A stretch of DNA of 61,399 nt, the filler included, from Sphacelaria rigidula (lineage: Eukaryota): the NCBI GenBank assembly GCA_964200075.2. It is 9 parts of 9 records of this genome, joined end to end, with 100 filler letters (N's around TTAATTAATTAA, not from the genome) between each part and the next. Parts side by side here need not be neighbours in the genome. Positions count along the whole stretch, not along the records: positions 6,835 to 13,568 come from CAXNAA020018355.1; 8 more parts are not named here. One strand, written 5' to 3'. Under the pieces are notes generated by a model, which worked only from the letters and a program-made list of their open reading frames with translations, was not told the DNA's origin and did no database searches. Shown here piece by piece: positions 1,455 to 29,593 of this stretch (position 1 is the stretch's first letter; each line of letters begins with the position of its first letter). The translations under genes were made by a program, and so were the position numbers.

Positions 1455-1769
1455 GTCGATGCGGACGCTAATCTCGAGCTGCGCGCCACCCTCTGCTGGC
1501 TGGACCCACCCACCCCGGCGATGACTGCAAGAAAGATTCAACATGATCTCGACCTTACAATCACGTCCCCTTCGGGAGACTTGTACACCATGTGGGGTTC
1601 GGGTACCGTAGACTCAGTGAATGTCAACGAGCGGGTGATTGTAAGCCCTGATCAACTGGAAAGCGGAGCGTGGAACGTGAAGGTTTCATCGAAAGCTCTG
1701 TTGACCGACAGTCAAGACTACTCACTGGTGGTAACAGGCGCTATCAGTAATGTCGACAAGAAGCTTTAG
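1455..1769 (+). CDS. Terminal exon of a subtilisin-like (S8) serine protease, C-terminal beta-barrel domain
   Basis: Pyrimidine tract plus tttcag acceptor ending at 1454, then in-frame VDADANLELRATLCWLDPP...HDLDLTITSPSG...DSVNVNERV...GAWNVKV...QDYSLVVTG to TAG. These motifs (L.W.DP, DLDL.V..P.G, NVERV, Q.YSLVV) are typical of KP-43/TagC-like S8 C-terminal domains. Confidence 0.8.
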   Translation, partial: VDADANLELRATLCWLDPPTPAMTARKIQHDLDLTITSPSGDLYTMWGSGTVDSVNVNERVIVSPDQLESGAWNVKVSSKALLTDSQDYSLVVTGAISNVDKKL

Positions 1770-2132
1770 CTGATGTCAAGCCTCACGATAGGTCTGCGGC
1801 TTCGCGAATTGTAGCGCGGGAAGTCACTCCGTCGGTTGCGGTTCTGAAGATATGCCCTGTCCCTGTTGGTTGGAATCGCTCGCTATTAATTAGTGCAGAG
1901 TCGATGTGGCGGATGTGTTACTTATTTGAGGCACTTCTAGCAATAAGAAGTCACGTATGAGCGTCAATACAGGCAGCATATTTCATTTTCATGCCCTCGG
2001 TATCAACATAGCACTTGGGGGCGGGTTTAGCAGCCATTGTATCGTTTTAAATTATCAAGGTTTGTACGCCAATGCAAATGTGTGCAAGCCAAGGGATTGC
2101 AATTGCATCAACTTTCACCCCTCGTCTCCCCC

Positions 2133-2450
2133 ATGGCAGAATGTGAAATATACGAGGAGGAACGGGACGTGCTAGAGGGGAAAATGAGGGACGTGAAGGA
2201 AGGTGGCATGAATTTGCTTGATGCAGTAGACTGTGGCGAAAATGCGATGGCTATACTACGAGATAGGTGGTGGCCACAGACGGCGAAATAGGACGGAGAT
2301 AAGATATAAAAAAAGGTTTTGTGTAATGTACGAAACAAAATGTCATGAACACCGGAATGTTAGATGTGTCTTGTTGGGAGTAGGAACGGTGCTCCGTCTC
2401 AATGGTCAAACGACTAAGGCAAGCAACGAATGAGTGCGCTCCCCCCCCCC
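2133..2450 (+). mobile_element. 5'-truncated LINE 3' end (ORF2 C-terminus plus poly-C tail)
   Basis: AECEIYEEERDVLEG...RWWPQTAK matches 27002-27235 (AECELYKEERDVLEG...RWWPETVK). Ends ...gcaagcaacgaatgagtgcgct followed by C10. Confidence 0.8.
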
Positions 2451-3580
2451 TCTCGTCTCTTGTAGGGTGTCACCTTGTCGTAAGGTTGGAACTCTCCCAA
2501 GCTAGTACGAAGAGACAAGAGCAGCTTCTGCACTGTACCGGCCTTTCCACGCTGGCGGTTACGAGAGCACCGATAGTCCCCATGGTCGTTGTAGAGGCTC
2601 TGACTCACGTCGTACGAGGGGATCGTAGCTGTATGGCGACAGCATGTAGTGGTTCTTCACACACAAAGGTTTGGACGGGTATAACTGCAGCACCATCAAG
2701 CTATGGATAAGTGTGGGGGGCATGATGCTGCACATTTCGTTCGGAGACGCATGACGGCGGAATCAGGTGGTGAAATACAGAAGTTGTAGGGAAAACATCA
2801 GCGTATACAGTATATGACAGCATGGGCAGGGCAGTGCAGGGCAGAGTTGTAGACAATGCGGCACAGGTATAAGATCGATTGACATGAGTCTGCTTTGTGG
2901 CCGGGTTGTCTTCACTGGTAACGTCTGCTCTGTCGATCACGGGCAAAAGACTTAAAAATTTTCACTCCAAACCAGGGGGCCAAACTCGAGTGAAGACCCG
3001 TGGCCAGCAAAATGCAAAGAAACACCCCTACCATCAGATTCATCGGCATGCACTTACCTGCGTGTTCCATTCTTCCTGATCACCAGATTACGCACCTGCG
3101 TGCGTGTCCCATTCATTCATGCGCGCCATTTTCCATCTGAACAATACGCCACCCTCGGGATATTTTTGCCAGCATCCACATCATCAATGCTCGAATCCGT
3201 CCATTATCCCCCCCGGGCTTTTGCACGACATGCGTATCCATACCAATCAGTGCGGACAAATTCGATGAGCTCGCCTGCTCGCGGCTACGCCTTGATTTTC
3301 CTTCCCAATGATTGTTCACTTATCAATGATTTGTGTCGAGGACTTTTTCGCAATTCGGTACACCGATAGAAAACCTCAACCATGAATTCTAATATTTTCT
3401 CGATATTCACCAATGAATTCCCTTTAAATCCCATCGATGATGACAAACGAAAAACGCATAGCAGGAGTTACCTCGCCCTCCTCCATCACTATATTGGCAC
3501 TCCAGCTACACTCTGAATCTCCAACACTCTACCTATTCGTACCCACGAACGACACTTCCTACGATAGCCCTCCCCAAATT

Positions 3581-3633
3581 GGTCAATGGTCAAACGACTA
3601 AGGCAAGCAACAAATGAGTACGCCCCCCCCCCC
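3581..3633 (+). repeat. Short LINE 3'-terminus copy with poly-C
   Basis: ggtcaatggtcaaacgactaaggcaagcaacaaatgagtacg followed by a C run; same motif as 2401-2450. Confidence 0.8.
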
Positions 3634-4859
3634 AAAAAAGGGCAACTTTCACCGACTCAAAGTCTACGTATCACGAGTTCTTCAGAGAACTCAAATTTGT
3701 CGGTCTGCCAAGTTTAAAGAGTTCATTGTACCCTCAGCACGCCGCTGGTGAGCAAAACAGCGCCGGAGGTTGTTATTTGGCGCCGGTCTCGAGACACAGA
3801 ATCGTGCGAAGATCATTGGCCACCGCATCCATACTGAACAAACAGTTGTTGAGTCTCCGTTTTTCTCTCAGGGGCACCTGAGAGACATCAGTGTGGAAAT
3901 ACAAAAACGGCAGGGGTGGCGGTGGTGGTGATCCCTTGTCATTCGACGGGCCAAACCCTTGCACTTTTTCAAATCAAGTGTCCTTCACGCTAGGAACCAC
4001 CGCATTGCGCATCTATAGGTAGTATAAGGATCCGCACGAAGTTTCAGGTCACTTCATCGCCCCTGGGTTGAGTTTAACCCATGGCTGATATTGCGGCTGT
4101 ACCCGGCGCTGCACGGACGGTGGGTCGGAGAGATGAAAGACACCCGCACAAAAACTTTGGAACCGTACATCTCTGTCAATACGGGAGCAAAATAAACGTC
4201 TGGTATATCAAATTGAAGATCTCCTTAATCACAAATACATCCCCACGTGTGGTTTTTTCACCGTTTCCTGTGCGTTCAGAAGTTGTGGCCTATCGTCCCA
4301 GGGGTTACGCTACATGCATTTCGTATACTCCCTCGAACCTCTTTCTCAAAGTTTCAGGAAACTTCCGAATCTGTATTTATCCGACAAAACAAACGGTGTT
4401 TTGATACACATCGGTCTACCCCCTGCACTGGGCTCGACGCACACCCGCAGCCGTGCTGAGTATGCCACATATCGCATGAGTACTTCTCGTCCTTATTGCT
4501 GTCTTAACGATGGCGCAAAATTCTAATGGAAATAACCGCGAAATACCCCGATCACGCGGCCCCCCGTCTGACCGTGCTCGCCGGGGGCAGAGAACGTTCT
4601 TCGCCACCACTCCGGTTGCCTCCACTGGTGGACCAGAACTCATCGCCCTCGGGGTCCTCGTCGTCGTGACTTCCGGCACTCCGTGGGTGGTCGGTCATCT
4701 ACGTCTACACCTCTTACCCGAGAGAGTTTACGTGCGGAGCGTATGTGTCTCATGGGTCGGCAGCAAGATTATTTGCCCAGTACTGGTCAACGGCAGCAAC
4801 AGCGCCAACAAGCCGCCAGGGATCGCAGAAACGCTAACCTTCGCACGAGGCGACAAGCG

Positions 4860-5498
4860 ATGAGATGTGTTGTCGTATTTTAAACGTAGATTCGCGATAT
4901 AGTACACAGCCGTACTACAGTACAGTGCACTGAGCAGTACATGCGTATATAGATTTGCACACCACTCCGTACAAGATTTTGACGGATACTGCTGTATCAG
5001 AGAGCTTCAATGAGGTGTGTTTTCCAATTACCATGATGCGCTACACAGTCGTACTGCAGTACAGCATTACAGCAGTACATACCAATAGTCTACAACTTTA
5101 CATGCCGCAACGTTCATGCTCCGCTGTTCATCAGTTCCGCCCTGTCACAGCGATGCCGACCGCGACAGCAATAACAGTGCGCGTAGAGAGCAGAGAGCCT
5201 CGATGAGGTGTGTTGTTGCTTCAACTTTAAACGTAGACTCATGCTATGCGTACAGCAGTACCTACTCTGTTGTTTTGTACCCGAGCTACAGTGTACTTTC
5301 AAACATATGATGATGGCTAAACAGCGCTTGTTTCTTTTTCCCATAACAAGCTGCAACGTTGATGCTCATGGTCGGATACTGCTGTATCAGAGAGCTTCGA
5401 TGAGGTGTGTCCTCAAATTACCATGCTGTGCTACACAGTCGTACTGCAGTACAGCAGTACAGCAGTACATACCATAGATAGACAATAGTCTACAACTT
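4860..5498. repeat. Imperfect direct duplication
   Basis: The block cggatactgctgtatcagagagcttc...caatagtctacaactt occurs at about 4983-5099 and 5373-5498. The gatgag(a/g)tgtgttg...tttaaacgtaga motif occurs at 4860 and 5202. Confidence 0.7.
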
Positions 5499-6663
5499 TC
5501 GACTAACAACTCTCGCACCCTCTCCCATCCTCTCTTCCTCCTGCTTCGTGTCTTTGCCACCTTACATTGCTATGCAAGAACTACCTACTACTCACAAGCC
5601 CAACGTCGTCTCCTGCCTACGACATTCTTCAATTTCACTTCTCGTAAATTGCAGAGCACGATACCTGTACGGAGTTTTCTCATACAGCGCGTGTCTGATG
5701 GCTTTTGGGCCTTCTGTCCTTCGTTTGCAAGTTTATAAGTACGTACCCGGATATCTTGCACGGGGTTCGCGTCTCCTGCAGCAGGCACCTGCTGACTTTT
5801 GTGTCCTCTCTACGGGAGTTTTTTTTTTTCTTTGCCTTGTTTTCGTAATCAATGACGTATCACAACGAGTGTAGCTCGTACCTGTCTCCTCTCTTTCCAA
5901 TTGTAAGGGTTTACCACCCTCCTTTTCCTTTGGTTTACCGAGGTTTTCAGCGCTTTTCCTTCGAGTTGGTGGGGTGGACTTGTCGTCGGTGCGAAATGCA
6001 ATTTTCCTGGTTTGCTCTACAAACTTGATTGTTGTGCTTTCAGATGTCTTTGCGCGTATCATGCGCCTCCTACGGTGTCATCTATCTTGCGCATCCGCTT
6101 TGCCTGCGATAGAACCGTGCGTACAGACTTCTTACCTCTGCTGTTTTTGCCATGTTTACTTACTAGTACTTGACCTTTCAGTGTCTTACTTGTTTTCTCT
6201 TGGCTTTCTGCTCTTCACCTCTTGTCGTAGGACTCAAGTCGCACCTTTTCCTCTCTCGTTGTGTCGGATGTGGCGTGCACGCAGGAAGATCACTTGTAGT
6301 GAGAAACAACTTGTTCTTGTGCCGTAGCTTTTGGTGCTGTATGTAGATATACACTACTTCAGCCGTTGTTGGTCCTGTGTTTGACTACACGCAGCACGTT
6401 GCTGCTCGCATCATAGGGTCTGGTTAACACGCGACTTTAATCCATATGTATGCACCTCGTCTGTACTGCGGGGATCGCATCTGTCTGAGACTTTTTTTCT
6501 CAGTTCTTCCCTTGCATCGGGTGTCCTTTGCCCTACTGCTCTTTGCGCCAACACATTTCCAATAATGCTCACCACCTTCCTATCTACCTCTTCTTTTCGG
6601 ACACCATCGCCGCATACCTGCTACCACCATCTCTCCTCATAATATCCGACCGGATACATATAA

Positions 6664-6734
6664 CAGGGTTGCCAGAAAAATGAGAACGTATTTTGAAATG
6701 AGAATCAACCGCTCCCCGGAATTGTGTCCATTTT
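6664..6734 (+). mobile_element. Possible hAT-type terminus, cut by the spacer
   Basis: Starts CAGGGTTGCCAG, a common hAT TIR start. The partner end is not in the segment. Confidence 0.3.
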
Positions 6735-6834
6735 NNNNNNNNNNNNNNNNNNNNNNNNNNNNNNNNNNNNNNNNNNNNTTAATTAATTAANNNNNNNNNN
6801 NNNNNNNNNNNNNNNNNNNNNNNNNNNNNNNNNN
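6735..6834. other. Artificial 100-bp spacer (first of eight)
   Basis: N44-TTAATTAATTAA-N44, with stops in all six frames. Identical spacers at 13569-13668, 20403-20502, 27236-27335, 34069-34168, 40902-41001, 47735-47834 and 54568-54667. Confidence 0.98.
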
Positions 6835-7116
6835 AGTCGACTAATTTGTTTACTAACGTTCTCACGCTTTCCACGGTGGAAATCATACATTACGAAGAAA
6901 AAAGTAGTTAAGGTGATGTAATATCGCCTGTGGTGAAGTTTTTAGCCTTGGTGTTCCGTCAAACCCTGCGGCGGTCACGTCCTGGAGTGTCGTTCCGAGG
7001 GTTCTAGCAGCGTCCGCAGTAATATGCCCTTCTTGTCAGTCCATCATACTGAAATATGTTTCCACCGTTTCGTACAGTGACTCTCAATTATATCAAGCGC
7101 GCTTGGAGACATAATC

Positions 7117-7509
7117 GTGATGGGTACACGAGAATGTAATCAAACATCTCGAAGGATTGGACTCGAGGAGATACCGAGTTACGTCCACTCTCGACCGATT
7201 TCGAGTCGCGGGGGCAGCAACGGCATCACTACAGTACGCCGAAACCTCAAGTCTGATATCCCCCCACTTGTCATATTTGCCTTGCAGGAGTGCGTAGTGT
7301 TCGAGGACGGCGAAGCAAAGTGCGGAGATACATGCGCGATTTGCCTCCCCGATCAGCTCTGCGAACTGGTGCCCGTGACGTGCATAATCACGCCGTGTAA
7401 CTTCCCTCCAGGAGTCCTGTGCATCGATATCAGTGATGATGACCTCAATGACGATGACGGAAGTATGTCCTTCCACTTCGACTTCGACGACGACACTATA
7501 CTCTACTAA
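7117..7509 (+). pseudogene. Degenerate RING-finger-like ORF with an acidic tail
   Basis: DTCAICL...IITPCN..., where the second half of the RING ligands is missing or altered. Asp-rich C-terminus; no introns visible. Confidence 0.35.
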
Positions 7510-9479
7510 AAGGGGAATAGCTACGACGCGCGCCGTTTTACGCACGCCATGAACACGGATGTCGCTAGAGACGGCAAGATCACGATCGCCCTGCTGTTGA
7601 GTGATGCAGTGTAAAGTCATTCCAAGACGATATATATTTGTCCATATTCTCGAGATGATCACCATGTCTAATGATAATGATGATAATAATGATGATGATG
7701 ATGGTGGTGACAGTCACGATTATGGTCGTGATAGCGGTAGTGGAGCATGACCTTCTGGTCCGATCAGGAGGGCATCGACGACTGTGTGTGTTGTACGACC
7801 TACCAGTCATTGAGTGTGATCCATATCCATCATCTATGGTTGATCGTGCATTTTGATTGGGTTGACACAGTACGATAATTTCTTCAATGAAGATCCATCC
7901 CATTTGAGGGGCGCGTCAGGGGGAAAATAATAGCCTCGTGATCGTTTCTACGGAAGGCGCGATGTACGTCTTGTTAACCCTTCGAACGCGGAGTGGTCCA
8001 CTTGAATCCATTTGTGCAAATATACCGCTTTATAGATTGATTGGTGTATATGGTTTCTCATAAATTCATGCTCCAAGAATCTTCGTGGTCGAATGACTAA
8101 CGGTTTGGTGTCGACAGTCGTCGATATATATGCTGAATCGTCCCAATTTGCTTCTTCAGGGAATGAAGTATGGGGCATGTAGAGTGGTCGACTAGAACGG
8201 GATCGACGAGCTTCGTGCGTCTCTTCCGAGACCGTCTTTCCCACACACTGACGCTTGTACCCCGGGGAGGAGACGATTGTCTTTGACAGGGAGGTGCATT
8301 GTTCATTTGAGCTCGTCATGCTCTTGTTTGCGTCCGGCTGAGTGCGCGTGTCTTCCCGAGATCAGGTTAGATAAATTGATCGGATTAGTTGCTTGATTGT
8401 GCTTTGCTAAGTGAAATGTGGATCAAGAGCTCCAGAGCTAGGATATAGTATGTAGTACATTTTGATGAGTTTGGCTATCGTGAGATGTATTGTCCTGAAA
8501 GCAAGTGTATGTTGGGTTTAAAATCTTCCGCCAACGAACGATAGTTACGCCTTCCAGTACATATGTGCTTTCATCCTTGAGGTTTATGCTATATCAGTGT
8601 GGCCGCCTGCCAGTAGGTGGTGCGTCACCCCCTTGTACGTGGCTGTTCATTGAAAAATCTGCGCGTTTGTTTCTCTCGGGGAGGGAGAGCGCCCACGGCA
8701 ATGCGGAAGTAACATTTGAATCCAGAGCATATCACTTAATGGGAATCGAGGATGATGAAGGGTGTCTTGTGGACAACAATATACCGGCAGCGTCAGATTG
8801 TGACTTGACTGCGTTGCTTTTGTTTCCCTGGGAGGGCCTGAAAGGGTTTCCCATTCGAGCTGTCTTCCATCGATTGTGTGTGTTCAGTGATTTGTGCATC
8901 CTACCATCATCATGGGTCCTTCTGCGTGTGTTCGTTTTCGTGAAGTTTTGGGTCCACATAGGTGTGGAGGAAGCGCGCTCTATCATCGTAGAACGGCAGA
9001 GTGGCACCCGGCCGACTGATTGGCCAAATACCCAAAATCATGAAACCTGATTGGCGGGATATTCCTCTTGCGACGGCTGATGCCATTCACGTCTCTTTGG
9101 AGCGTCTTGCAGGCTTCTAGATATGGATGGTGTCACGCGGTGGGGTTGGATCCACCATTGAGTACAGTGCGTATTTTGCCCGTGGGTACTGTAAGCACGC
9201 ACCGGTAGTTCTGGGCGTACCATAGAGGAAGACGCGGCTGCTTCGACGGGTTCATATCTGCAAAGGTGTTTTCGCCTTGCCAACGACCAGGTAGAGCTGA
9301 GTTGGAAAAGTCATCTCGCACAACGGAAAGGGCGAGAAATATACAAGCGTATGAGACGGCCCATCATCACGGATTAAATAATGGTGTCATGACAGTGTTT
9401 TATCATCTCGGCAAATTTTGTTTTTCTCCGCGCTCGACTTCGTCCGTACCACAGAGAACGGACGTCGACTTACGACTGA

Positions 9480-9917
9480 CTGACTCTGTTACATCAGTTG
9501 CAGATGATACTCGAGTGAGCAAGAGGTGCGATTGGAGACCGACTGGAAAAGGTGGTCACTAACGGAGCTCAGGTTGAGCCCGCGGATATGATCATGAAGA
9601 TGATCATACTCCGACGACGTTCCATTTGGAGAAAGCATGTGTTAGCTACAGCATGGACAAACGTTTCAAATATGCCAAAGTGTTGCCCTTGCCAATCTCT
9701 CCAATCAGGCCCTCCTGTCAGAGTTCTATAAACTGTTGCAGATCAACGAATAACTGAATCTGAGAGGAGCGCGCCCGTCCGCCGTAGGACTACCACTAGT
9801 ACTACCGCTGCTGCTACAGCCACCACCACTACCACTGCGCCGGCTATTGTTGTGCATGAAATATGGAATGTCTTCTTCATCGTGATGGGCGATGAAGAAT
9901 GTCACGGGTTTCGTCAC
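9480..9917 (-). pseudogene. Decayed HNH-endonuclease-like ORF
   Basis: Reading through stops after ORF 9726-9917 gives VCPCCS*HMLSPNGTSSEYDHLHDHIRGLNLSSVSDHLFQ, then after one frameshift LAHSSIICN*CNRV. The layout is CxxC...ExDH...CxxCN. Confidence 0.4.
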
Positions 9918-10209
9918 TGGAGTCTTTACACGTTGACCACATTACGTCAGGGCGACCTACAACAACGCCCAACGAGCGTAACCGTTCGCGAGAACTAGAG
10001 AAATATATCTCATAATTGGCGGAGGACAAAGTCTAGCCAACGATTGGAGTACGGTGAAGGCGATGTGGGAAGAGAGAGAGAGCGGGGTTTGTCGCCGTGC
10101 AGGTACTTATCACCCCTCTTCCCGCCCCTCATCCCCCCGGTACCTATACCAACATGATGTCATTGCAAGAGGCTGATGATGGTCTCATATAGTACGAAGT
10201 AGTTTCCTT

Positions 10210-10992
10210 TGAAATAGGGATTTTTGTAACTCTTTCGTAGTCGACGATTTTCGATATTTTTTTGCGTGTCACCGCTCATGCCAGGGAACGTTTGATCCCG
10301 AAGTTTGGGGATCGGGGGATACTAGAAAGTCCGTTCCAGATTCCAAACAAAAAACATCTCTGCGCTCAATATTGACCGACTTAGGGGCTGAATTGACGGG
10401 GGGTGCCATTGACCGTTTTTGGTCTAAAACACGTTTCTTTTCGACTCTAGCGTCATGAATGGGTAAACATCAAGAGCAGGGTCTGTGAAACTAATCACAA
10501 GAGCGGTTAGAAAGTCCTAGCGCCGAGGGATATCAGGGGGAGAATCGGGTGGTACTCAGGACACAACCCTCATATGGTGTTGTTGGAGTCATGCGGAGAA
10601 GGTTCCTCGTTTAACAGGGAGTGTTATCGACCGTGACTGGTCCAATAAACACAGTTTTTCGGCTCTAGCGCAATAAGTAGGTAGATATTCCAGAAAATGT
10701 TCCTTTGATTTCTTCACAAGAACGACCGGGAATCCTACAATAATCGAGCAAAAACATCCAAGGGTCAGAACCTGGGGCTGGGTAGTGATAGGACCTCCGA
10801 AAAACAGTCAGCCCATAAGTCGTTCAATATTGAATGCAAACATGTTCTCTGTTTCGGAGTGTGGAGCGGATAAGCAGTATCTCCCGATTCCCAAACGTTG
10901 GGATCAAACCTTTACTGGGATGAGCGGTGGCACGCAAAAGGATGATTGAAAATCGCCGACTATAAAAAAAATGCGAAAAATTCCCTATTTCA
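10210..10992. mobile_element. Non-autonomous TIR element with about 115-bp imperfect TIRs
   Basis: tgaaataggga...gcgtgtcaccgctcatgccag...tttgatcccgaagtttgggga is inverted at 10876-10992. The internal motif (ttgaccgtttttggtc) is related to 44171-44622. Confidence 0.75.
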
Positions 10993-11037
10993 GCTGCAAA
11001 TTACTGTCGAAATCTTTGTCACGGAGAAGACACCTGG

Positions 11038-11109
11038 TATTAAGATGACACAATAACCACTGAGCCGCCCCGTCAGCGCCGACTGGTTCAGTGACTGTCG
11101 TGAAATCTT
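11038..11109. mobile_element. Diverged AGCGC(T/C)-centred palindromic mini-element with an interrupted right end
   Basis: aagatgacacaataaccactgagcc...ggttcagtgactgtcgtgaaatctt is homologous to 12124-12203. Its terminal caca is displaced to 11845-11848. Confidence 0.6.
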
Positions 11110-11557
11110 TGACACGTCGGACAACTCAACTCAGGTTAACACGAGTTAACTCTTTCCCGCATAAACCTGTGAGTTATACTGTAGCAACATAACTCAGTGG
11201 TGCACATCCTGGCCGGGTGAGTTATACTACACAACTCAGCGGTGCATATTCTGGCGGGGTGAGTTACACAGCATAACTCAGCGATGCAGATTACGGCCAG
11301 GTACTTATAGAAGACAACTCAGCAGTACACATTCTAGCCGGGTGAGTTATAGAAGATGACTCAGCGGTGCACATTCTAGCCGTGTGAGTTATAGAAGATA
11401 ACTCAGCGATGCACTTTCTGGCCATGTGAGTTGTAGAAGATAACCCAGTGGTGCATGTTCTGGCCGGGCGAGTTATAGAAGATAACTCAGGGGTGCATAT
11501 TTTCGGCAGCTGAATGATACAGAATAACTGAGTTGATTCATAGGTTGTCCGACGTGC
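11110..11557. mobile_element. TIR element A (CACGTCGGACAAC termini) containing a 42-bp tandem array
   Basis: cacgtcggacaac at 11113-11125 and gttgtccgacgtg at 11544-11556. Flanked by GAAATCTT at 11102-11109 and 11558-11565. Confidence 0.75.
11169..11535. repeat. Minisatellite, about 42-bp unit, about 8.5 copies
   Basis: Unit approximately gtgagttatagaagataactcagcggtgcacattctggccgg. Each unit carries the dyad gagttat-N5-ataactc. Confidence 0.9.
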
Positions 11558-11565
11558 GAAATCTT

Positions 11566-11836
11566 CACACGTCGGACAGATCATGATCTGTCTGAAACAG
11601 CTGATGAAAGAAGACTCTCGAGTCCGTTGGTCCAAAAACACAAAATATGTGACAGCGGAGTCAGTAAAGCCAAAGCGCAACCTTTGCACTACTCGGCATG
11701 CTCAGCGTCCGGCACCGTAAGGAGAAAACAGGGAAAAGTAGGGTCAGATGATCCGGATCATGATCCAGATCATGATCCGGATCAGTATACTGAGAAGAAG
11801 TAATTTTCAGACAGATCATGATCTGTCCGACGTGTG
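11566..11836. mobile_element. MITE B with perfect 32-bp TIRs and 8-bp TSD GAAATCTT
   Basis: cacacgtcggacagatcatgatctgtctgaaa (11566-11597) and its exact reverse complement (11805-11836). GAAATCTT at 11558-11565 and 11837-11844. Confidence 0.9.
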
Positions 11837-12123
11837 GAAATCTTCACAAAACACTGACTCAGTGCCTCAGTGGTTTTTGTGACGCCCTCATTAAAGCTTG
11901 TCCAGGGGGTCGATCCTCCCCATGACGGTTTTTGGTCGATTTCTCCACGATAGAGAAATACAGAAGGGCACACCGCGGGGACCCGGTGCAAGCGCGCTAG
12001 GCCGGAATAAGCACGACCAACACTGCATTGTCTCAGCACTGGTCATAGTGGCGAAAACTCTGGGACGAAATGAGAGTTCGATCTATAGACCTAGTGAGTT
12101 GGACAGACACCAGGATTGACTCA

Positions 12124-12203
12124 TGTGAAGATGTCACAGTAACCACTGGGCCACTCAGCCAGCGCTCACAGAGTAGTTCGGTGGTTAATGTGACATCTTG
12201 ACA
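12124..12203. mobile_element. 80-bp palindromic mini-element centred on AGCGCT
   Basis: TGTGAAGATGTCACagtaaccactg...cggtggttaatGTGACATCTTGACA, with its exact centre at AGC|GCT (12161-12166). Flanks ctca/ccca. Confidence 0.75.
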
Positions 12204-13689
12204 CCCAGAGACACCCGTGGTGTTGTCAACCTCGTTCTATTGCCAAAACTTTGATGTAAGTACGCCTTGGCCATGAATGCACCGCGTGATTGACGTTGCA
12301 TAGTATTTTGACTCGGCTGAAGTAATTAATGCAACACGCGGCATTTACCATCAGTACACGACTGTGCTGGCTGACGGTGAGGAATGAATGCAGAAACACC
12401 TTGCACCCCGTATCCTTTCGGCGCTGCTTGTTATGGGTGCGAAAAAAATCCCTGACACAACGCCTGGTTTCGCGATCCAGCTGATGTTCGCCGGAACACG
12501 CCGCTCGGCGGATAGTGCCACCTCGGAAAGACGGCTGTACTCCCCGAGAGGATTCTAGCGCACTTTGCCGTTGTTCCGTCCACCCAGTTCGACATTTAGC
12601 CTGACTAGCAATGACGCATACAACCTCGGTACAACCCACGAAACAAGTCCGAGTGATCCATGAAACACACCTACATCTTGGGAAACACGATATTTTCGGG
12701 GCTGTTCGAGAAATCGCTCGTCCGCTCAAAATCGTATGGAAGATATAGCGAAGATAGCAACGGTGCGCGAGAATCCGCTCTGAGAATACAGTAAAATCTC
12801 TCCGAGGTGGCACAACATGCTAATACGCGTGTTTCGGCGAAACTCGGTGCTGAATCGTCAAACCAGACATTTCGGGGGAGTACTCTGGTAGCCCAAGCGC
12901 CCTGAGACGCGAAGACATATGCGTGATCTCTTTTACTCGAGGAATGACGGGTGTTACCGCGATCGCTAGGCCCCTCCAAACCAGCCCCATAACATGCACG
13001 AAGAAAATGGTCATACAGCGCATGATAGCTAGTTTCAGACTGACTGCATGAAGTGCCTCTTATGGACGATAGTGGCAAAAACGATCCCAAGTGTGGGAGT
13101 TCCCGGCTGCTTTTGTCATTTTCTAATGCGCATGTAGATTTGCCTCCTCAGACCAGCCATTTTGCTAGGGGGGGCTATCGCAGCATTACTCCAACACTGC
13201 TATCTATATGTGCACTGATTACATGCAAATACATACATGTCGCCAGTGAATCATTGCTTTGCGTTCGTGCTACTAACAACAAGACCGTGGCAGAAGGACT
13301 AATGTCGCGATAGGCGCCACCAGGAAAGTGGCTGATTTGGGGGAGGCAAATCTACATTTGAAAAAAAAACGAGAAAAAGCCGAGTCCACCGAGCAGTTGG
13401 AAACGCCCACGCTTGGGATCGTTTTTGCAAATGCCATCCCCATGAGGCGCTTACTCATGAGGCAGTGTATATGACGTGGCTGTCTCAGCAAGTGGCGATA
13501 CCAGACAATAAAGCAACTCATCGTAGGCTGTCATCCAAATGTAAGATAATCGGTAGGCTTTGGGCCGANNNNNNNNNNNNNNNNNNNNNNNNNNNNNNNN
13601 NNNNNNNNNNNNTTAATTAATTAANNNNNNNNNNNNNNNNNNNNNNNNNNNNNNNNNNNNNNNNNNNNCCCCCCCCCCTATCGTAGGAT

Positions 13690-14276
13690 GACTCCCCCCT
13701 TACTGAGCTACTCAAGAAAGGAGCCGTGTTTTCTTTCACCACAGAAATGGAGACTATCACCCGCGAATTACTCAAGACGCTTACCGAAAAGCCCGTACTT
13801 TGCTTTTCTTATTGAGAGGCAGTACAAGATGGCTCCCGCCTTTTCCAACTCCATACTGACGCCAGCACAAATGCTTTTGGAGGAGTTTTGAATCAACGTC
13901 AGGTTGATGGCTCTGTCCGACCCATCCTTTATATCAGCCGCGCTACCCTGCCCAACGAGGCCAATTGGAGCCCGCTAGAACTGGAAGGCGAAGTAAACAC
14001 TTGGGCCATTAAGCGCCTTCGACAATATCTGTTTCACGTGCCCTTCGAGATCTATACGGATCACGGAGCACTTGAACAACTCGCCAAGGTTGGTGAACAC
14101 AACCCTCGTGTATAACGATGGTTGGAATTTCTAACAGCATACCAGTATACCAATAAGCACCGTGCAGACAAAACCAACGGGAACGCGGATCTTCTTTCCC
14201 GCCTGCCTCTGCCGCCTACGGCCGCAGATTCCAGCCCGGCTTGCCGTTTAACGGAACCCGATGAACCCGGAATTTA
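13690..14276 (+). pseudogene. pol: Ty3/Gypsy pol, RT connection and RNase H region (frameshifted, with stops)
   Basis: FQLHTDASTNAFGGVLNQ...RPILYISR...NWSPLELE...WAIKRLRQYL...FEIYTDHGAL...RWLEFL...NGNADLLSRLP. Confidence 0.92.
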
Positions 14277-14343
14277 GGCGATCAGACGTTTTTCAACGCC
14301 CGTTTACGCCCTCGACCTCCAGTGCCCGGGAACCGATAAGCAT

Positions 14344-17062
14344 ATGGGAGGACCTCGCCCTCTACCATATGACGCCGTCTTGGGTGGGTTAAAGCCCACT
14401 ACCTCCGATTTTGTCGACTTTCGCACTTTCGGTGCTCGCGCGAAACTCTTCGCGGCGACACCTCCAGTCACTCACCTTATCTCCGACAACACGCGCTCCC
14501 GGTCTGCCGCCCGCACCACACCGAGTGCCCCGCCGCCACCAACAACACCTTTAACCTCTATCAGCCACCCAGCACAAGTTCCACGGACCAACACGCAAAG
14601 CTCCGCAAATCCTTCGGCACCGTGCGCCACGCGCCGCGAAACATCCTCGCCGCGCACTGATACAACCCCGCCGCCTATAATGGCGCCGCAAACATCTCCT
14701 GCCCCCGAGCACGGATCTGACGACTCGTCTCCAGCTCCCGGAACAGAAATTGATGTCGGCATTTCTGCCCCGTCGCCTAGTCCCCCGCCACCTGCCCTAC
14801 CATGTTTGGTCGGCTCGCCAGCAGAAGGTCAGCTAAGCGAGTTTCTCGCCAGCTACTCTCACCGCGATTGGGCTCGTGAACAACACGTAGAACAGCTATT
14901 TCGCGCAGCCATCCGGTACTTACAACTTGACTGTGCAGTCCCTTTTCCGTCCACACTTCTGGCCCCGGTTGGAACACTGCCACCACCAGTTATTTCTGAC
15001 GTATACGAGCTCGTGCGTAAAGGCACCCTTTATACTACGGATGAAGGCGTGCAACTACTCATCCGTCGGCCCACGCCCTTGACAGGCGCAATTGCCGCCC
15101 CAACTACGGGACGCACCGCACGACCACTCAATGACGAACCAGCGCGCATATATGTGCCATTATTAATGCGCCCCTGGGTCATGAAAGGCTGCCACACAGA
15201 CTTGTCATGCCACCTTGACGTCACCAGCATCCTCGCGCTCTTGGAACGCTTCTACTGGTGGGTTGGCATGGAAATCTCAACCCGCTTCTGGATTCGGCGA
15301 TGCTTCAAAATGCCAAGCCCGAAAAACCTCACGACAGACAGTAGTACGCTGGCCCGTGATCTCTATAGGACTCCTCGACGAGCCCGGTCACCTTGTATCC
15401 TTTGATCACTTCTGCCCTCTCCCGACCACAGGTCGCGGCAACACCTGTCGCTTACTCTTCACTGACCGCTTTAGCCGCCACGCGTCCATGTACGCGGTAA
15501 CCGCCGCAGATTTCACTGCCGCCGGAACGGCCGACATACTGGTCCATGATTACATTAAGCACTACGGCTGCCCGAAGCGACTACTTTCAGGCAATGGTCA
15601 GCAATTTTGTTCAGACCTCTCGGATGACCTTTACAAGCTCCTAGGCATCCGAAAAATTGCCACGAGCGCCCACCACCCGCACGGCAACGGCGGGACCGAA
15701 AGAGTTAATCACACCATGGCCCAGATGTTCTCTATGGTTGTCAATGACCGCCAAAATGACTGGGACCTACATCTCTCGCACATCATGTTGTCCTACAACA
15801 ACTCGGTTAATGCCGCCACAGGCCTTTCTCCGAACGAACTTCATCTTAGACGCTACCCTCGGTTGCCTATCACCGTGTTCGAGCGATACACGTTCGACGG
15901 TCACCAAGGATTGGATCAGGATCAGATATCCTACAACGAACTCGCACATGCACAACATCGCAAAGCGTTCACCTTCGTGCGCGAACAACACGCTATCAAT
16001 GCCTCGCTCCTGGAGAGATCTGACACTGCTCTCTACACCTTCATGCACAAACGCCCTACCTGGAAAGTTGGTGGTTGGGTTTGGATCTACAACAGCTTGT
16101 CGACCATCCGCCAAGGCACCAGCAAGGCAGCCAACGAAACAATGTTGAAAACAAAATTGTCCCTCAATTGGACAGGACCATTCAAGATCCTGACAGTCGG
16201 ACCTTCGTCATCATCACCGGATGAAAACCCCGTTGATGACAAACTGCTCTATCTCGACTTACCTCACGACTTCCAGGACAAAGACACCAAGCCCCACGTC
16301 TCCGTGAACAGATGCAAACCCTGCACGAACCCGCATGATACAAGCGACATGCCCAAGTACCTGCCGGCCGGACTCACACAGTATGTTCTCAACAGCTACT
16401 CGACCAAGTCCCCGCCCTACCACGTTACAACCGACGACGTGACGGAACAGCCCCTTCGGTTGGCTGTGTCCTCCATTTCCGGCCACCAGATAGCCCGTGG
16501 CCGAGCAGGCAAGATCGCTGTCATGTATAAGACACACTGGCATGGTCTTCGGAGAGCGTCTTGGGGACGCGAATCCGACCTTCAATTGCACCGTCGTGCA
16601 ATCCTCCTTCACTGGACGCAATTCAAACATCAGCATCTTACTCACAACAACAAGTATCGCAACATGCGCCGTGGCACAGCAGCCCGCGAACTTCCCCGCA
16701 ACCAGGGACTACGCTTTGTCGCCGATGATTACGAACTTGTATCCTCCAAGACTTGTAAGACGAAGTTCTTTGCGAACCAGCGACTCCTGCCCAAGGGCAG
16801 CTACCTTTGGTTCAAAGGCAGCGACAACCTCTGGTGGTTGGGTCAGACCCACTCCGCTAACTTGGTTTCGGCCGACACTTACATCGTGCGCTTCATCGAT
16901 GACCCTGGACCCGTACAGCTCAAGCTTCGGCCAACGCTATACAGCATCAGCTCATCTGCACCACGCGGATCCTGGTGTCTCCAGCGCCTCAAGTCCAAAG
17001 GACTTCGCCGCGGTCTCCAGCGCAACATCGATCACACCCACGACGCCCATGCCCCGCTTTGA
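14344..17062 (+). pseudogene. pol: Ty3/Gypsy integrase with a chromodomain-like C-terminus (frameshift near 15310)
   Basis: A Pro-rich linker, then the HHCC zinc finger (GCHTDLSCHL...RFYWWVGM...CFK/CQARK). The core is SFDH...LLSGNG...GTERVN, with the second catalytic D replaced by G. Then WTGPF and a chromo-like ISGHQ...YKTHWHG...SW..ESDL. Confidence 0.93.
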
Positions 17063-21375: not shown

Positions 21376-22388
21376 ATCTTGGGTCATAGAATTGGCACGA
21401 GCGAAAGTCGCCCATTTTTGTCGAGTTGGGTCCAAGCGAAGCTTTCGATCGAAAAAAGACCGTGAAATTCGTGAAACGGAAGTTGTCCTTGTGTACAGTA
21501 CAGGCAGTTTGTACTGTACTGTCTACACTACTGTTTGCATGCAGTGTGTGTGTGTGTGCGTGTGCGTGTTTCGTACAGTAGGATGCGAAAGAAAAGGAGG
21601 CAACGTGCGGTACAGACAGCGCGGGACTATCTGTTCTACCTGCTTATAATGCGACGTGAAAAGGACTTGTACAGCGTCCAGCTTTGTACTGCCTGCACTG
21701 TCCATGAGCGTGTACGCAACTCGGTTGCCCACTACCCTGCAATTCCGTCGCTGATCCCTACCGTGAAAGAAGATACCCAAGGTTTCGCCAACAGGAAATA
21801 AACAAAGCATACCCAACGACTGCAGAACGTCCATGCATGCCAACACCGGCGCCAACGCTTGAGACTTACTTGGTTTCAGTATACCAACGCTCCCGCAGCA
21901 ATATTAAAAAATGTTGGCCGTTGAGGGATTACCGAGTTACACAATACTCACTCAGTACCCATTGGTATGTATGCGATAGACCCGTTTGGGGTTGAAAACC
22001 GAGTCCCACGAGTAGTTTTTAGTTTTTCCGCGCCACCCGCTTGCTTTTCATCGCGCACCAGCGGAACAACGTGTGAGCGGTGAAAAAAAACTGATTGGTC
22101 CTACCTCTGCTGCGGGAACACTTTGTTGGTATCACCCGGGATTTCACCCACGGCGCCGCTCCACCGCCCGTTATCCCCGCTGCCGGCAGTAACACTTTGC
22201 TCGGTACTGTTGTGACTGGTTACTGTAGATTGGATCTCACTTGGCCAGGGAGTTCACGGTCTGCCTTCCATCGGGGTTGGCACTAGAGTTTGGGCTAGGG
22301 TTAGGGTTAGGTAGTTCGACAAAATCAACCATATAGATTTTCGACCAAATCTAAAGGTCGCCTCCTGAAACAACCATTCAACGGATTA

Positions 22389-22580
22389 AAAAACACAAAA
22401 ATATGTGACCGCGGAGTCGGAAAAGCCAAGACTCAACCTTTGCGCTACTCGGCGTGCTCGGCGTCCGGCGCTATTGGGAGCAAACATGGAGAAGGGGGGT
22501 CAAATAATCCGGATCATGATCTGGATCAGTATACTGACGGGAAGTATTTTTCAGATGGATCATGACCTGTCCGACGTGTG
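22389..22580 (+). mobile_element. Second, left-truncated copy of MITE B
   Basis: aaaacacaaaaatatgtgaccgcggagtcgg...gatcagtatactga...tgtccgacgtgtg aligns with 11636-11836. Confidence 0.85.
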
Positions 22581-25500
22581 TTGTTGTTGTCTTCACATTA
22601 AAAACTATTCCGATATCTGCGCGGTACATTCGTACTGGGCATCTGATGCGGACGCCGTCCGTGGTCACAGGCTAGCAAAAAAAACGAAAAACAAAGTAGA
22701 CCAAGATTAGAGACTCACAAAACGCGATACAAGCAAAACAGGAATAAGTAATAAAGAAGAAAGGGAGTACATATGGCTAACCTCAGAAGATCCGGTACCG
22801 TAGGTGGCCGTTCGGACTTCAGGGGGTGGCACTCGGTTTTTCAACTCGACGCGCGACAAATAGAAATGAACACAGGGTCCGACTACGGGCGAGACTCAAG
22901 GCCCCAAATACCGCCAACCAAAGAACTAAAGAACTAAAGAACTAATAATCGCAACGTTCCATCTTTCCGCCTCTCGAGGGACAGCCATACGCACGAGCAT
23001 ACCAGGTGTATCTGGGTGGCAGAAATAAGTGACATGCGCATCGATTGTGCTCTGCGAATACTGTATATCTGTAATAAGTCATTGGCAATGACCCGCTCAT
23101 GTGGCACAGCCAGCTACCTGACGTTTTACAGTGTCTCTCATCACATGGACGGAGCCGCAGTGGCGAAGGCAGGGAGCCCGCGGTGGTGCGGAGTACTACT
23201 GTACAATCAGAAAAGCAGCAGCCGCCAACGGTACAGCAAGAATGACCGATGGAGTTCAACTTTGTTTTCGTTCAGAACCAATCGAGTGCTCTCGTAGTGC
23301 GGACATTTATTTCATCGCAGCTATCTGACTCTTCCCAGATTTTCGCGCCGGTCCCAGCTTGCCATCCAAAAGTTCGGTTGTTATGCAATTTTTCTTCTGT
23401 CGGGGATACCTGTCGGCAGTTTCATCTTCACTGCTGCGCCTGAAACTTGGTGAGATCCAGCGCACTGGTGAAGACTAAAACGAGTACAAAATGTTTTCAA
23501 CCATTTTTTCCGACCATCTGGTGAACTCTGTTGGTTCTAGATGTAGTCTAGAACGTTTCAACCGACAGCGGTTGCTCCGCTAAAACACCAAACGACACAA
23601 CATGTTGCCTGCGCTACGTTACTGAGCATTGCCTGGGTAGTCTATGCCAAAGTCAGTCCCTAACAAAGATGTTTCGGCCAATCTTATGCGAGAAAATATC
23701 TCCCCAAATCACTCAACATATCCGCAGATTCTCGCATAGGTATTCCAGACATATATTGCCCAAATATATCCGATATACCCCTATATATGTGGGATTTACA
23801 CGCGGATATCACGCGATCTGTATATCTATATCCTATTGGGGCCACTTTCAGACCCAATACCGCACTCTAGTATGCAGCATTTCGATTTGAAGTTGGGTTT
23901 ATCGTGGGTTGGTTCCGGAGGCGTCGGCGATCTGTACCGTCTTATTTGCATACCCCACCTGCAAAGAGGTCGCGCCCTCGTCCCCAACTGTGACCTCCTC
24001 TTGGTCCGCAGGGACCGATATTGAGTGGGATATATGGGATGTATGTGAACACCCTCTTGTGTCTTCAAGTGATGTTAAATCTACATAAGCAGGGAGCGGA
24101 TGGATCGAGAGGCAAGCGACCGACAAAAAATGGCGCTTAATATATATATATATATATATATGGTGCCCACTGTATGGTGGTGGTGCGTTAAATTTCATCC
24201 CCTGACTTCAGACTACGGGAAACCTGCGGGAAGTGCGTGGTTCGTATACGACCACCAAGGAGCACACCAATAACAGCCGTGCTATACTGCACTACACGCT
24301 CGTTATTGGCTTGACACACCGCCACTTCCCACGGCACGACGGATATCTGTATGTTTCGACGACATATGCGGTGAACAACTTTGTGCTGTCTATCAAACGA
24401 ATATCAAGAAATAAATATGTCGTGGTCAACACAACTAGCCTGATGAAAACAACCAGCTGGCTTGTTACGCCCCTCTTGCGACACAACTGACTACGACTAC
24501 AGCCCTCAGTCAACAAACCACTCCCTTCCGTGCACGACTTTGAAAGGTGCGATCATGGCTGAGCGAATGCGCATGGTGAGGTACTTGAGTTTGTCGACAC
24601 CACACTGCTTCACATTGTGGTCTTCTCATCAAAGGTGAACCGCACGGCATGACCTGATCGCGAGCGATGGCGCACGACCTGCTCAGATTACCCCAACACA
24701 CTGAGTAGGAGTAATGTATACCGCGAGCTCGACATCAAGTACCGCGATTCACCTGTGCAAACAAGAAGTATTGTCGCTCCCTCGGCCATGTCGCGTTTCT
24801 GTGCGCTGAATACAGCTCGCCCGCCGGGTGTTGTTGTTGTCGACGGCCCCGCATCATCTTGAGATGAGGCATGTGATACCTCACACCCGATTCGCCAGTA
24901 GAAAATCCCTTGATTTAAGGTGACGGTCATTCACGCTGGTACGCACAGACGTACTCTGACCATTCGTGCTCCATCGTGTCCAATCGCTGGCCGAACATTT
25001 TTGCTGCCGTCAGGACTGCAAACTACACAAAGTGCCCAGAAGAGCGATGTGGGTTCCACGATTGATATACGCATGGCTCGTCGGTGTTGGTCTTTTATGG
25101 GTCAGAGATGAGGACATAGGTGAGTCGGCTAAGAGGGGGACATCACCAGCTGTATGATGTGCTGAGGTATCTGTTTTCCAGCATTCACCCACTCACGAGT
25201 TTCCACCATCACATCCATATAAATACATCCACTCTGTCAATTTGGGCTTGACAAGCATTGAATTCGTGATCAAGCGAGTGCCTGCAGCAGCCGAAATCGC
25301 TCGGTAGGGGCATGTAGCGAGCGACACAATGCCCTCGTTCAAGGGAAACGTTCGCCACGACTTCGTTGAGCGGTACGTCGCCTGCTTACCATTGTTCGGC
25401 ACGTTGCGAGCATCCTAGAGGGGATTCTGAAAATGAGGACGAAAATATTGCTTGTACGAGTATGGGAACCGCAAAAAGCCTGGCGCTCGGAATTGTGCGA

Positions 25501-27235: not shown

Positions 27236-29264
27236 NNNNNNNNNNNNNNNNNNNNNNNNNNNNNNNNNNNNNNNNNNNNTTAATTAATTAANNNNNNNNN
27301 NNNNNNNNNNNNNNNNNNNNNNNNNNNNNNNNNNNAGCGAATCTGAAAAGCAGACTAGGCTCTCTCTGTGGGGTGATGCAAAGGAGGGCTTCAAAAAGTC
27401 GTCAGGCTCGGACTGCGCTCGCGCAGAGCAGAGCCGAAGGCGAAATGCGACCCCCCGCATGGGCCCCCCAGGAGGATCGCCGGAGGCCTCCCGGAGGACG
27501 CCGGCCGCAGAAATTTGGCCTTTTCCCTTTCAAAAGACCAAAAAATTGGCCTTTTCCCTTTGAAAGAGGTCGAAAACATAAAGTTCGCCTACGGCGAAAA
27601 AAGACCTCCATTTTTTTCTTCGCCGTAGGCGAAAGGTGCCGCATAGATTTTTTTCGCTTTCGGCGAAATGGCTGCGGCCCAAACTTTTGGGCTGCGGCAA
27701 GCCGCAGGTGAGCCCTCTGGGAGTCTGCGCGCAGCGCAGATTTTCCGAAATATCTACGCTGCTGCCGCAGCGCCGCAGGCACTTTTTGAAGCCCTGATGC
27801 AAGGTGTCCGAGACGTGTGTTGGCGATTTTCCCAGTTTGGGGGTCAAAGGGTGGGTCAAACGTCCCAAAAGTGCACAATCCGTCGGCCAGAAATATGTTT
27901 GCTGTAACATCCGGCCTAGAAGAATGACTGTGATTTCTTTCTTCTGATACATATTCGAAACCTCATTTCGACGGGCGGATTGGAAATTAAAAAATAACTG
28001 TTCCGAATACATACACAACTTTTTGGCGGAAGAATTAGTTACGGTTCAGCATTAGCAACAAAGATCGCAGTAACAACCGAAGAGATGGGATATTCGCCGT
28101 AAAATAATGAGTACTAAAGTCCATGCACTGTGCAGTAGCTCGTATACATAAATTTAGCACATTGTCAGAATAGTGGAGAACGTTTGGTACGTGGAGTCTA
28201 ACGTGCTGTCAACAGTTGTTTACATAAACGGTTTTATTGGCGTATCCGAGAGTTTTGTCGAGAGATTGACGTAGCCCCTCGCTGTTACTCTCCACAGCCA
28301 CCCACCTCCAGCAGGCTCACCAGCTTGTCATCAGTTTCCCGTATATAGAGTGGAGACTGATCGTCTTTGGTTCTGGATACGGCCGAGTAAAGCACCAAGG
28401 GAGGACCGTCTTATTTTCTCTACTGCACTAAGCAAGTGTTGAGTGTTTCACCAACACTGCATCCTCTGCGAGCTTTCTTGTTAGAGCTGTGTTCACGGGT
28501 TGAACTGCTGTTCTTGTCAAGTAAGGAGTTGAACACTGCTGTACTACGTTATTCACTACGTTTGAATGCAGACAAGCCATAGCTATGTTTCCAATAGACT
28601 CGCGAATACAGTCCGCAAGGAACCATGACAACGATTGAAATAAAATATCGTAGCAGGTGACGGTGGATACCACCCAGGGCGATAGATTTTTCAACCTAGA
28701 ATTTCTTATATTCTTATACATTACGGTGGCTACGCCCCCCGAGTACCGGGCCATTAGAAAGATCTTACGGCGCCGAAAGTATTCGGCAAATGGGGATATT
28801 TGACAGTAGGAGAAACACTTTAATAGAGGAAATTAATCTTCAAAAAAGCGTCGTCCGGGGGGGTTTCACGGTAGGAAGCCGAGATCGAAGACTTGATCGT
28901 TCGGCGGTGATACAAACTAGGTCACTCACCTTCGGTACATATTAAGAATTAAAAATCAACCCGACATGCGACAGTAGACGCATGGGCGTTTTTTTACTCG
29001 TAAGTTCATTGCTACAATATTAGAGCTCTACAAGTTTACAACGCAACGTGGCAACACAAGATGTCGAGTACTGACCACTCGTGAGCAACAAGACAGTAGC
29101 CACACAACAAGCAGGCTTTTGCGATCGTCCTATGGGTTGATCGCGATACATACAGATGGATAGATGAGTACTCGTAGAACTTCGGTTCTTCTTGCGCTTG
29201 CTACATAGATGCCGTGGGGGATGATATATAAGCCTGCCGCTTCGATACCCTAAGCCCTACCGAC

Positions 29265-29593
29265 CTTGTCGATGTCCGCCTCGAGCACCAGAGCAGTCGC
29301 CGCGAGTGATCCCGCTGAGCTCCCAATAACACTCTGGTCAGGGTGGACGTCATGCAGACGATGATCAAGAAGGCACTTCGCAACCCCGAAGTTATAGATC
29401 ATCAGCCATCCCCCCATAGCGAAGGAGAAATTGTACGCTGGCAACTCCTGTGGCGTGCTGGTGGTAAGGAAGGGCATTCTACGTCCGCTGCACGAGAATT
29501 CGAGCGGCACTGGTGCGGACCAGTCTAGTCGACGATCGAGAAGAGAGCTATCTTCTACGGTACTAATCGCACGCGGCTCAAACGCCAGCAGGG
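29265..29593 (-). CDS. Internal exon of a patatin-like phospholipase (PNPLA family)
   Basis: Branch-like ctgac, pyrimidine tract and cag acceptor; donor AAG|gtcggt. Encodes the oxyanion region FSFAMGGWLMIYNFGVAKCL and the nucleophile motif GSSAG. Confidence 0.88.

Follow-up and report, generated by a model that had tools for sequence, protein, structure and literature searches.

Two nonautonomous elements side by side at one octamer in a brown alga: a probable double insertion into a regenerated target

Introduction

MITEs of the hAT and P kinds are short and noncoding, end in TIRs, are flanked by an 8-bp duplication, carry subterminal short repeats, and reach very high copy numbers. MITEs can also lie within one another; Jiang and Wessler reportedly used nested MITE insertions in rice and maize in 2001 to infer insertion preference, the targets there being the 2- to 3-bp TA and TAA. 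Target-specific DNA transposons form another group, and Dada (in small-RNA genes) and Pokey (in rDNA) are found almost wholly in one host sequence.

Tandem P elements with an 8-nt duplication between them have been described and were formed by double insertion (McGurk and Barbash 2018, PMC5932611). Dimers of the Drosophila P element are favored at the sites that best match the target motif, and an insertion both keeps the target and makes a new one (PMC5932611).

Here, we describe a site in the brown alga Sphacelaria rigidula where two short elements, A and B, stand head to tail at one octamer inside a small palindrome. The original prediction, made from the sequence alone, was that both belong to a target-specific family that finds a safe harbor at the ends of another mini-element and builds tandem arrays there. 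We compared the locus with related sequences nearby and with public sequencing runs, and we conclude that an ordinary stepwise double insertion at a favored target motif is the probable explanation of the pair.

Materials and Methods

The window is the whole stretch of DNA analyzed here, 61,399 nucleotides from assembly GCA_964200075.2, and all positions count along it. It consists of nine segments of about 6.7 kb each, joined by spacers of the form N44-TTAATTAATTAA-N44, and the A and B locus lies within segment 2 (positions 6835 to 13568).

Five public sequencing runs contain the segment, and we compared four of them (X1, X2, X4, and X5; four samples from two studies) over positions 10100 to 12300 at 80% likeness. 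X1 is an algae-metagenome run, and X2, X4, and X5 share one species label. Because of that shared label, and because the segment as found in X1 shows only a few differences, the four runs are not independent genomes. Since all run data were contigs, depth serves as a rough guide only and is not a copy number. The numbers of contigs matched to the 2.2-kb stretch were 5,310 to 5,710 in X1, X2, and X4, and depth in the unique bins (11876 to 12097) was 22.9 to 62 in X1, 69.7 to 163 in X2, and 15 to 32.7 in X4. The run results are the best-supported rows, beyond which there were another 3,381 loose-end rows, 625 joints, and 19,175 pieces. The flank motif was read from plurality consensus strings only, taken from the listed loose-end rows, and any copy whose flank matches the local one is necessarily absent from the groups clipped at 11566 and 11836.

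Results

Noncoding repeat makes up most of the window. A Pfam scan of its 168 ORFs returned families only for pieces of LTR retrotransposons, a hAT C-terminal fragment, and a weak patatin-like match. The LTR-retrotransposon pol pieces lie at 13816 to 17062 in several frames (RNase H, an integrase zinc-binding domain, and an integrase core), and the integrase ORF there has its best named homologues in Ectocarpus.

The octamer GAAATCTT matches the window seven times versus 2.28 expected (7 was reached in 2 of 100 shuffles), and four of the seven matches in 61 kb fall within 840 bp, on the plus strand at 11009, 11102, 11558, and 11837. The last three form a direct repeat that brackets A and then B, in agreement with the prediction that both elements occupy one octamer site, and the spacer between A and B equals the flanking duplication in both length and sequence. 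The parts of the locus are as follows.

11102 to 11109, plus strand: octamer copy 1, GAAATCTT, left of A
11110 to 11557, plus strand: element A, a 448-bp noncoding TIR element
11113 to 11123, and inverted at 11546 to 11556: core CACGTCGGACA of A
11558 to 11565, plus strand: octamer copy 2, GAAATCTT, between A and B
11566 to 11836, plus strand: element B, a 271-bp MITE
11837 to 11844, plus strand: octamer copy 3, GAAATCTT, right of B, covered by contigs of X1, X2, and X4 that run from 11810 or 11814 to 12300
11111 (plus), 11546 (minus), 11566 (plus), 11824 (minus), and 22568 (minus): matches to CACACGTCGGACA with at most one mismatch

The two elements have their ends in common and nothing else. 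The 11-nt core CACGTCGGACA is present at all four termini of A and B, and the two ends of B are more alike to each other than this common core. With at most one mismatch, the 13-mer CACACGTCGGACA has five matches in the window versus 0.08 expected (0 of 100 shuffles). The interiors are unrelated, with a best local score of 19 against a shuffle mean of 18.2 and a maximum of 25, so the predicted combination of a common terminus with unlike interiors was borne out.

Element B has TIRs (11566 to 11597 and 11836 to 11805) that are identical at 32 of 32 nucleotides, each containing the 18-nt palindrome GACAGATCATGATCTGTC. A 12-bp subterminal repeat is present in 3.1 copies at 11748 to 11784, and GATCATGATC occurs four times in B, once in a related copy in segment 4, and nowhere else in the window. 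The octamer abuts both B ends, and the next four bases, CACA, are also repeated, which gives a 12-nt direct repeat. The largest loose-end groups among the rows listed from the four runs have their boundaries at 11566 and 11836; the contigs that break before 11566 number 87 in X1, 94 in X2, and 66 in X4, and those that break behind 11836 number 129 in X1, 143 in X2, 123 in X4, and 27 in X5. This pileup at exactly two positions fixes the ends of B: CACAC/GTGTG lies inside the element and the octamer outside it, in the flank. The same family-wide ends rule out a longer duplication of 12 or 17 nt that would include GTG...CAC. Depth in the B bins was 27,564 to 47,066 in X1, 65,503 to 96,528 in X2, and 10,710 to 16,563 in X4, hundreds- to thousands-fold above the unique bins in contig depth, which is not a copy number. 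B is a real and very abundant MITE. When 11537 to 11800 (the A-B junction and B) was translated and compared with a protein database, none of the eight candidates scored.

Element A is less regular. Its arms are 18 nt long and 89% complementary, and the octamer is not flush with its core, since TGA intervenes on the left (3 nt) and C on the right (1 nt). A had been predicted to be bounded by octamers; the same 8-mer does stand on both sides, but the offsets make the arrangement less clean than was implied, and the target duplication of A is only approximate. No family-wide end for A appeared among the loose-end rows listed from the runs. The only long ORF across A and B (11294 to 11701) matched no Pfam family. 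Depth in the A bins of X1 was 1,710 to 7,340 versus 22.9 to 62 in the unique flanks, and one X1 contig bridges 10878 to 11141 with 1 difference.

Inside A, a 42-bp tandem repeat is present in 7.5 copies at 11189 to 11501. This repeat is abundant in the runs, many contigs differ in repeat number, and the joints within it jump forward or backward by multiples of about 42. Given this abundance and the differing repeat numbers, the 42-bp repeat behaves like satellite DNA within a mobile element.

Both A and B have TIRs, small size, and no coding capacity; high copy number with dispersed, differing flanks is seen for B; a flanking duplication of fixed length is present for B and only approximately so for A. 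These features support the view that A and B behave as nonautonomous TIR elements with a common 11- to 13-nt terminus and an 8-bp duplication.

The pair interrupts a mini-palindrome, of which a second copy lies intact some distance downstream. The relevant features are the following.

11003 to 11026, plus strand: upstream duplicate of the junction context, with an unoccupied GAAATCTT at 11009 to 11016
11027 to 11101, no strand assigned: left and central part of the mini-palindrome, with the insertion site in its right arm
11845 to 11890, no strand assigned: rest of the interrupted mini-palindrome arm, with a small hairpin of its own, aligning to the post-octamer sequence of the sister arm
12096 to 12233, no strand assigned: intact sister palindrome, self-inverted with 71.8% identity over 142 nt
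12192 to 12199, and in reverse complement at 12128 to 12135: unoccupied counterpart octamers of the sister, GACATCTT

The left part of the interrupted palindrome resembles the sister (11042 to 11079 versus 12128 to 12165, 81.6% over 38 nt), and 11049 to 11076 pairs with 11854 to 11881 across A and B. The pair is therefore inside one palindrome arm and not at the end of the mini-element, where it had been placed. When we removed A, B, and two octamers in silico, the remaining sequence aligned along its length to the sister palindrome at 12096 to 12233. Its junction, GTGAAATCTTCACA, agrees with the sister at 13 of 14 positions (reverse complement of 12124 to 12137) and at 12 of 14 (12190 to 12203), so deletion of both elements does restore a sister-like sequence, as was foreseen. 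Taken separately, the left and right flanks of the pair align to either side of the sister GACATCTT, with scores reached by 4 and 15 of 500 shuffles, respectively. These alignments give moderate support to the sister arm as a putative paralogous empty site for the A and B pair. Three palindrome-arm octamers in the window are unoccupied (11009, 12128 to 12135, and 12192 to 12199). Depth in the sister-palindrome bins was 119.8 to 178.8 in X1, 236.6 to 407.4 in X2, and 40.2 to 90.5 in X4, which in rough contig-depth terms places the mini-palindrome about 3 to 8 times above unique sequence and about 100-fold or more below B.

The junction context at the left of A has a duplicate upstream. Positions 11093 to 11127 and 11002 to 11035 are identical in 27 of 35 columns (a score reached in 0 of 500 shuffles), and within them is a 24-nt direct duplicate, 11003 to 11026 versus 11093 to 11118, 93 bp apart. 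This duplicate covers the octamer plus 7 nt, and in the downstream copy these 7 nt form the start of A. The upstream copy is homologous to the right arm of the sister (0 of 500 shuffles), and its part beyond the octamer, taken alone, is not significantly TIR-like. The 24-nt duplicate points to a local duplication in the history of the palindrome that may bear on the ragged left junction of A; simple insertion does not explain it.

Two other readings of the mini-palindrome were set aside. Its appearance resembles a D arm; tRNA and Rfam scans of the whole window gave 0 hits, and this idea was dropped. We also rejected its outer arms as a decayed TIR of the family, since the scores against the upstream paralogue were reached by 155 of 1,000 shuffles for A and by 783 of 1,000 for B; B has a marginal TIR likeness to the outer left arm of the sister (12 of 1,000 shuffles). 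Farther upstream, a 783-bp foldback-like repeat at 10210 to 10992 has imperfect inverted arms (64 nt at 86% and 47 nt at 83%) and 16-nt tips. Its depth reaches 47,707 in X1 versus about 23 to 62 in unique sequence, no flanking duplication was seen around it, and 10 nt separate its end from the duplicated junction context upstream of A.

The window holds two further B-like sequences.

22389 to 22580, plus strand: partial B-like copy in segment 4, 79.4% over 204 nt, right end intact, left TIR not recognizable
54519 to 54567, plus strand: diverged B-like end in segment 8, 82% over 34 nt, cut by the segment end, with the 13-mer at 3 mismatches

Beyond the end of the segment 4 copy at 22580 come 9 nt (TTGTTGTTG) and then TCTTCACA at 22590 to 22597, just as had been noted of a copy ending there with the same motif close by. 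Both intact B right ends in the window thus have TCTTCACA within 12 nt, a recurrence that the motif alone does not explain. Compared with the two palindromes, the segment 4 flank scored 32 and 21, whereas shuffles averaged about 24.5 and reached at most 40 and 39, respectively. The segment 8 end has a different flank, so one of the three B-like ends within the window lies in a recognizable mini-palindrome. Interstitial telomere-like runs of the TTAGGG type are present at 22292 to 22311, which is where the segment 4 copy stops resembling the left part of B, and at 55324 to 55341, just upstream of a decayed hAT C-terminal ORF (55376 to 56227). These two runs may be scars of break repair.

Flanks of B copies in the runs gave a broader view of where the element inserts. 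The 30-nt flank consensus has an agreement of 0.36 to 0.41 (0.35 to 0.41 beyond roughly 9 nt) and differs between runs past about 9 to 10 nt, over its distal two-thirds, where it is unlike the local A-B flank. The last 9 to 10 letters before 11566 read (C/G)AAACCTTG and are alike in the three runs that list the group (X1, X2, and X4). A separate, nonoverlapping X4 group (63 contigs, clipped at 11564) reads GAAACTT and then TT, and the first letters behind 11836 read AAA-(C/G/T)-N-TT in four runs. Read in direct orientation, the left and right flanks of B match over about 8 nt, the pattern expected of a target duplication. This direct orientation on both sides rules out the octamer as part of a longer TIR; an inverted arrangement of that kind would have counted against the original prediction. 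Random flanks in most copies would also have counted against it, and apart from a short shared motif of about 8 to 9 nt this is what the runs gave, distal flanks agreeing weakly (0.36 to 0.41). It is plausible that the family has a degenerate target preference of approximately G-AAACNTT(G/T), an A-rich half followed by a T-rich half. The local octamer fits this motif loosely (5 of 8 positions in register, 7 of 9 slid by one base). Some distal consensus letters recur between runs, and a subset of B copies sharing flank may contribute to the motif; we infer that the motif reflects target choice and not such a subset. Most copies of a site-specific transposon lie in one host sequence, and an agreement of 0.36 to 0.41 over 30 nt is not what such an element would leave.

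An 8-bp duplication fits the hAT and P superfamilies and a few others. Elements of the hAT superfamily have a terminal YARNG motif and a target pattern of nTnnnnAn, and P elements combine an 8-bp duplication and TIRs of about 31 bp with a THAP-type transposase. B has the 8-bp duplication of hAT elements; its termini read CACAC and do not match YARNG, and in the flank motif position 2 is A and position 7 is T, whereas hAT targets carry T and A there. As for P, B has an 8-bp duplication and a 32-nt TIR; this TIR with the subterminal repeats resembles P elements in style only.

Pattern scans of metagenome, genome, and viral collections found no transposase-bearing copy with the same termini. A 20-mer scan of metagenome contigs gave 6 loci, each matching the 20- to 21-mer only with no element around it, whereas 22-mer and 21-mer patterns gave 0 loci in genome contigs and the 22-mer gave 0 loci in viral contigs. 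The 21-mer pattern found two identical loci in viral contigs (L007 and L008, position 599 to 622), each a 23- to 24-nt exact match to the segment 4 variant of the B terminus inside coding-like sequence of a large viral contig, with no second end and no GATCATGATC. These and the other 20- to 24-mer matches in the collections are probably due to chance. Within the window, we rejected the hAT C-terminal fragment (55376 to 56227) as the autonomous partner since no such termini lie nearby; an Atlas look-up for this fragment gave only generic hAT leads below 0.9.

Discussion

We propose that A and B represent two nonautonomous, MITE-type TIR families that share an 11- to 13-nt terminus. Since they share this terminus, one transposase, or closely related ones, would presumably move both, and the enzyme would make an 8-bp duplication. 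A first element would have entered the octamer GAAATCTT in the palindrome arm, leaving an octamer copy on each side, and a second element with the same termini would later have entered one of these copies, giving three octamers with two elements between them. Each insertion would regenerate and multiply the target, and stacking would then be possible. A degenerate target preference and a very high copy number would make such reuse likely, without homing to the mini-palindrome; a family that has hundreds to thousands of copies and prefers certain sequences is expected to reuse an octamer exactly at some sites. The order of the insertion events and the common transposase are what we infer from the arrangement. 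Overall, we consider an ordinary stepwise double insertion at a favored target motif to be the likely explanation of the pair.

The runs contain a second arrangement of this kind. X1, X2, and X4 each have a single contig with a joint from 11839 back to 11562 (a step back of 278); the shorter side measures 35 to 38 nt, and the depths are 114.6, 380.3, and 67.2, respectively, about 5 times unique depth. The joint represents, elsewhere in the genome, a B right end, a near-identical spacer GAA..TCTT, and then a B left end. Of the tandem stacking by the family that had been predicted, this recurrence in three of the four runs stands, and array building at mini-palindrome ends is not supported.

Specificity for the mini-palindrome ends, with the palindrome as a safe harbor for arrays, would account for the stacked pair inside a mini-palindrome arm and for the TCTTCACA found 9 nt beyond the segment 4 copy, which locally is the 8 bases spanning the octamer end and flank. 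The right-flank contigs, which start at 11810 to 11814, also hint that 31-mers extending only a little way into the local flank occur more than once. The largest B groups, however, have a weak flank consensus beyond about 9 nt (0.36 to 0.41) that is unlike the local flank, and the sister-palindrome bins (40.2 to 407.4 across X1, X2, and X4) compare with tens of thousands for B. Nor does the segment 4 flank match the palindromes better than shuffles do (32 and 21; means of about 24.5), the segment 8 B-like end has a different flank, and three palindrome-arm octamers (11009, 12128 to 12135, and 12192 to 12199) are empty. Because the flanks share only a short motif and are diverse beyond about 9 nt, and because palindrome depth is some 100-fold below that of B, the safe-harbor claim is not supported, and we regard it as very unlikely. 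A rearrangement could also have placed the two elements side by side. If paralogous or allelic mini-palindromes each had one element in the same octamer, unequal exchange or gene conversion between them would join the two; duplication of a preexisting composite unit is another route. A duplicate of the junction context lies 93 bp upstream and takes in 7 nt past the octamer, so local duplication has occurred; a B-B junction elsewhere at about 5 times unique depth fits a dimer amplified as a unit; and the ragged junctions of A fit a more complex history. Such an origin would still require that homologous sequences were hit twice at the same octamer, and hence a target preference, and no second copy of the A-B junction was found among the run rows listed. 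Stepwise insertion yields three identical octamers without extra events, and we think rearrangement rather improbable.

It is harder still to credit an assembly chimera between repeats or a coincidence of octamers. B is very high in copy number, and short-read contigs break there; among the contigs listed, none spans 11540 to 11580, and the A-B junction has no bridging contig. Against an artifact, the outer junctions are seen in two studies (contigs covering 10878 to 11141 in X1, and from 11810 to 11814 to 12300 in X1, X2, and X4): contigs of the run from the other study bridge 10878 to 11141 and 11814 to 12300, and the X2 and X4 contigs agree with 0 differences. As for chance, an exact 8-of-8 match at fixed positions has a probability of about 1.5e-5 and occurs twice here, and four of the seven octamers of the window lie within 840 bp. 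An explanation of this kind is extremely improbable.

The enzyme for CACGTCGGACA-ended elements could recognize a semipalindromic target of about 9 to 10 bp (G-AAACNTTK, or GTG-AAATCTT-CAC at this site) so strongly that occupied sites would go on attracting other, differing members of the group, producing heterotypic head-to-tail arrays that seed satellite DNA in this alga; small palindromes in which the motif has a hairpin-prone setting might be local hot spots. We arrive at this reading from the 42-bp satellite that A already carries and from the recurrence of B-B dimers, and we offer it tentatively, as something possible but doubtful.

If our preferred reading of stepwise double insertion is right, the site would be a clean sequence-level case, from neither Drosophila nor bacteria, of two different MITE families inserting at one regenerated target. 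The analysis also defines a very abundant brown-algal TIR family by its exact ends, its 8-bp duplication, and a candidate target motif, and this definition would help brown-algal repeat annotation and the search for the transposase of the family. A literature search for MITEs of brown algae or Ectocarpus gave nothing on such elements among the matches listed, and the 11-mer core occurs in 8 papers, of which the 5 listed deal, judging from title and abstract, with unrelated matters. In this searched literature, we found no description of the A/B family.

Compared with Dada and Pokey, the family shares the idea of a cut-and-paste element that recognizes a defined host sequence, but B copies lie in diverse flanks with only about 8 to 9 nt in common. 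The nested MITEs of rice and maize are a parallel in that MITEs have inserted into other MITEs or small repeats; here, by contrast, an 8-bp target was reused exactly and the elements lie side by side. A and B are like hAT and P MITEs in size, lack of coding sequence, TIRs, and 8-bp duplication, and B has GATCATGATC four times, but their termini start with CACAC and not with the YARNG of hAT MITEs. Like the P and hobo dimers, the pair consists of head-to-tail DNA transposons with a spacer of one duplication length, 8 nt (PMC5932611). The double-insertion mechanism is already in print there for P and hobo dimers, and this locus reveals no new mechanism (PMC5932611). What differs from those dimers is that the pair is a heterodimer of two nonautonomous families sharing only their termini, that the host is a brown alga, and that A has an internal 42-bp satellite.
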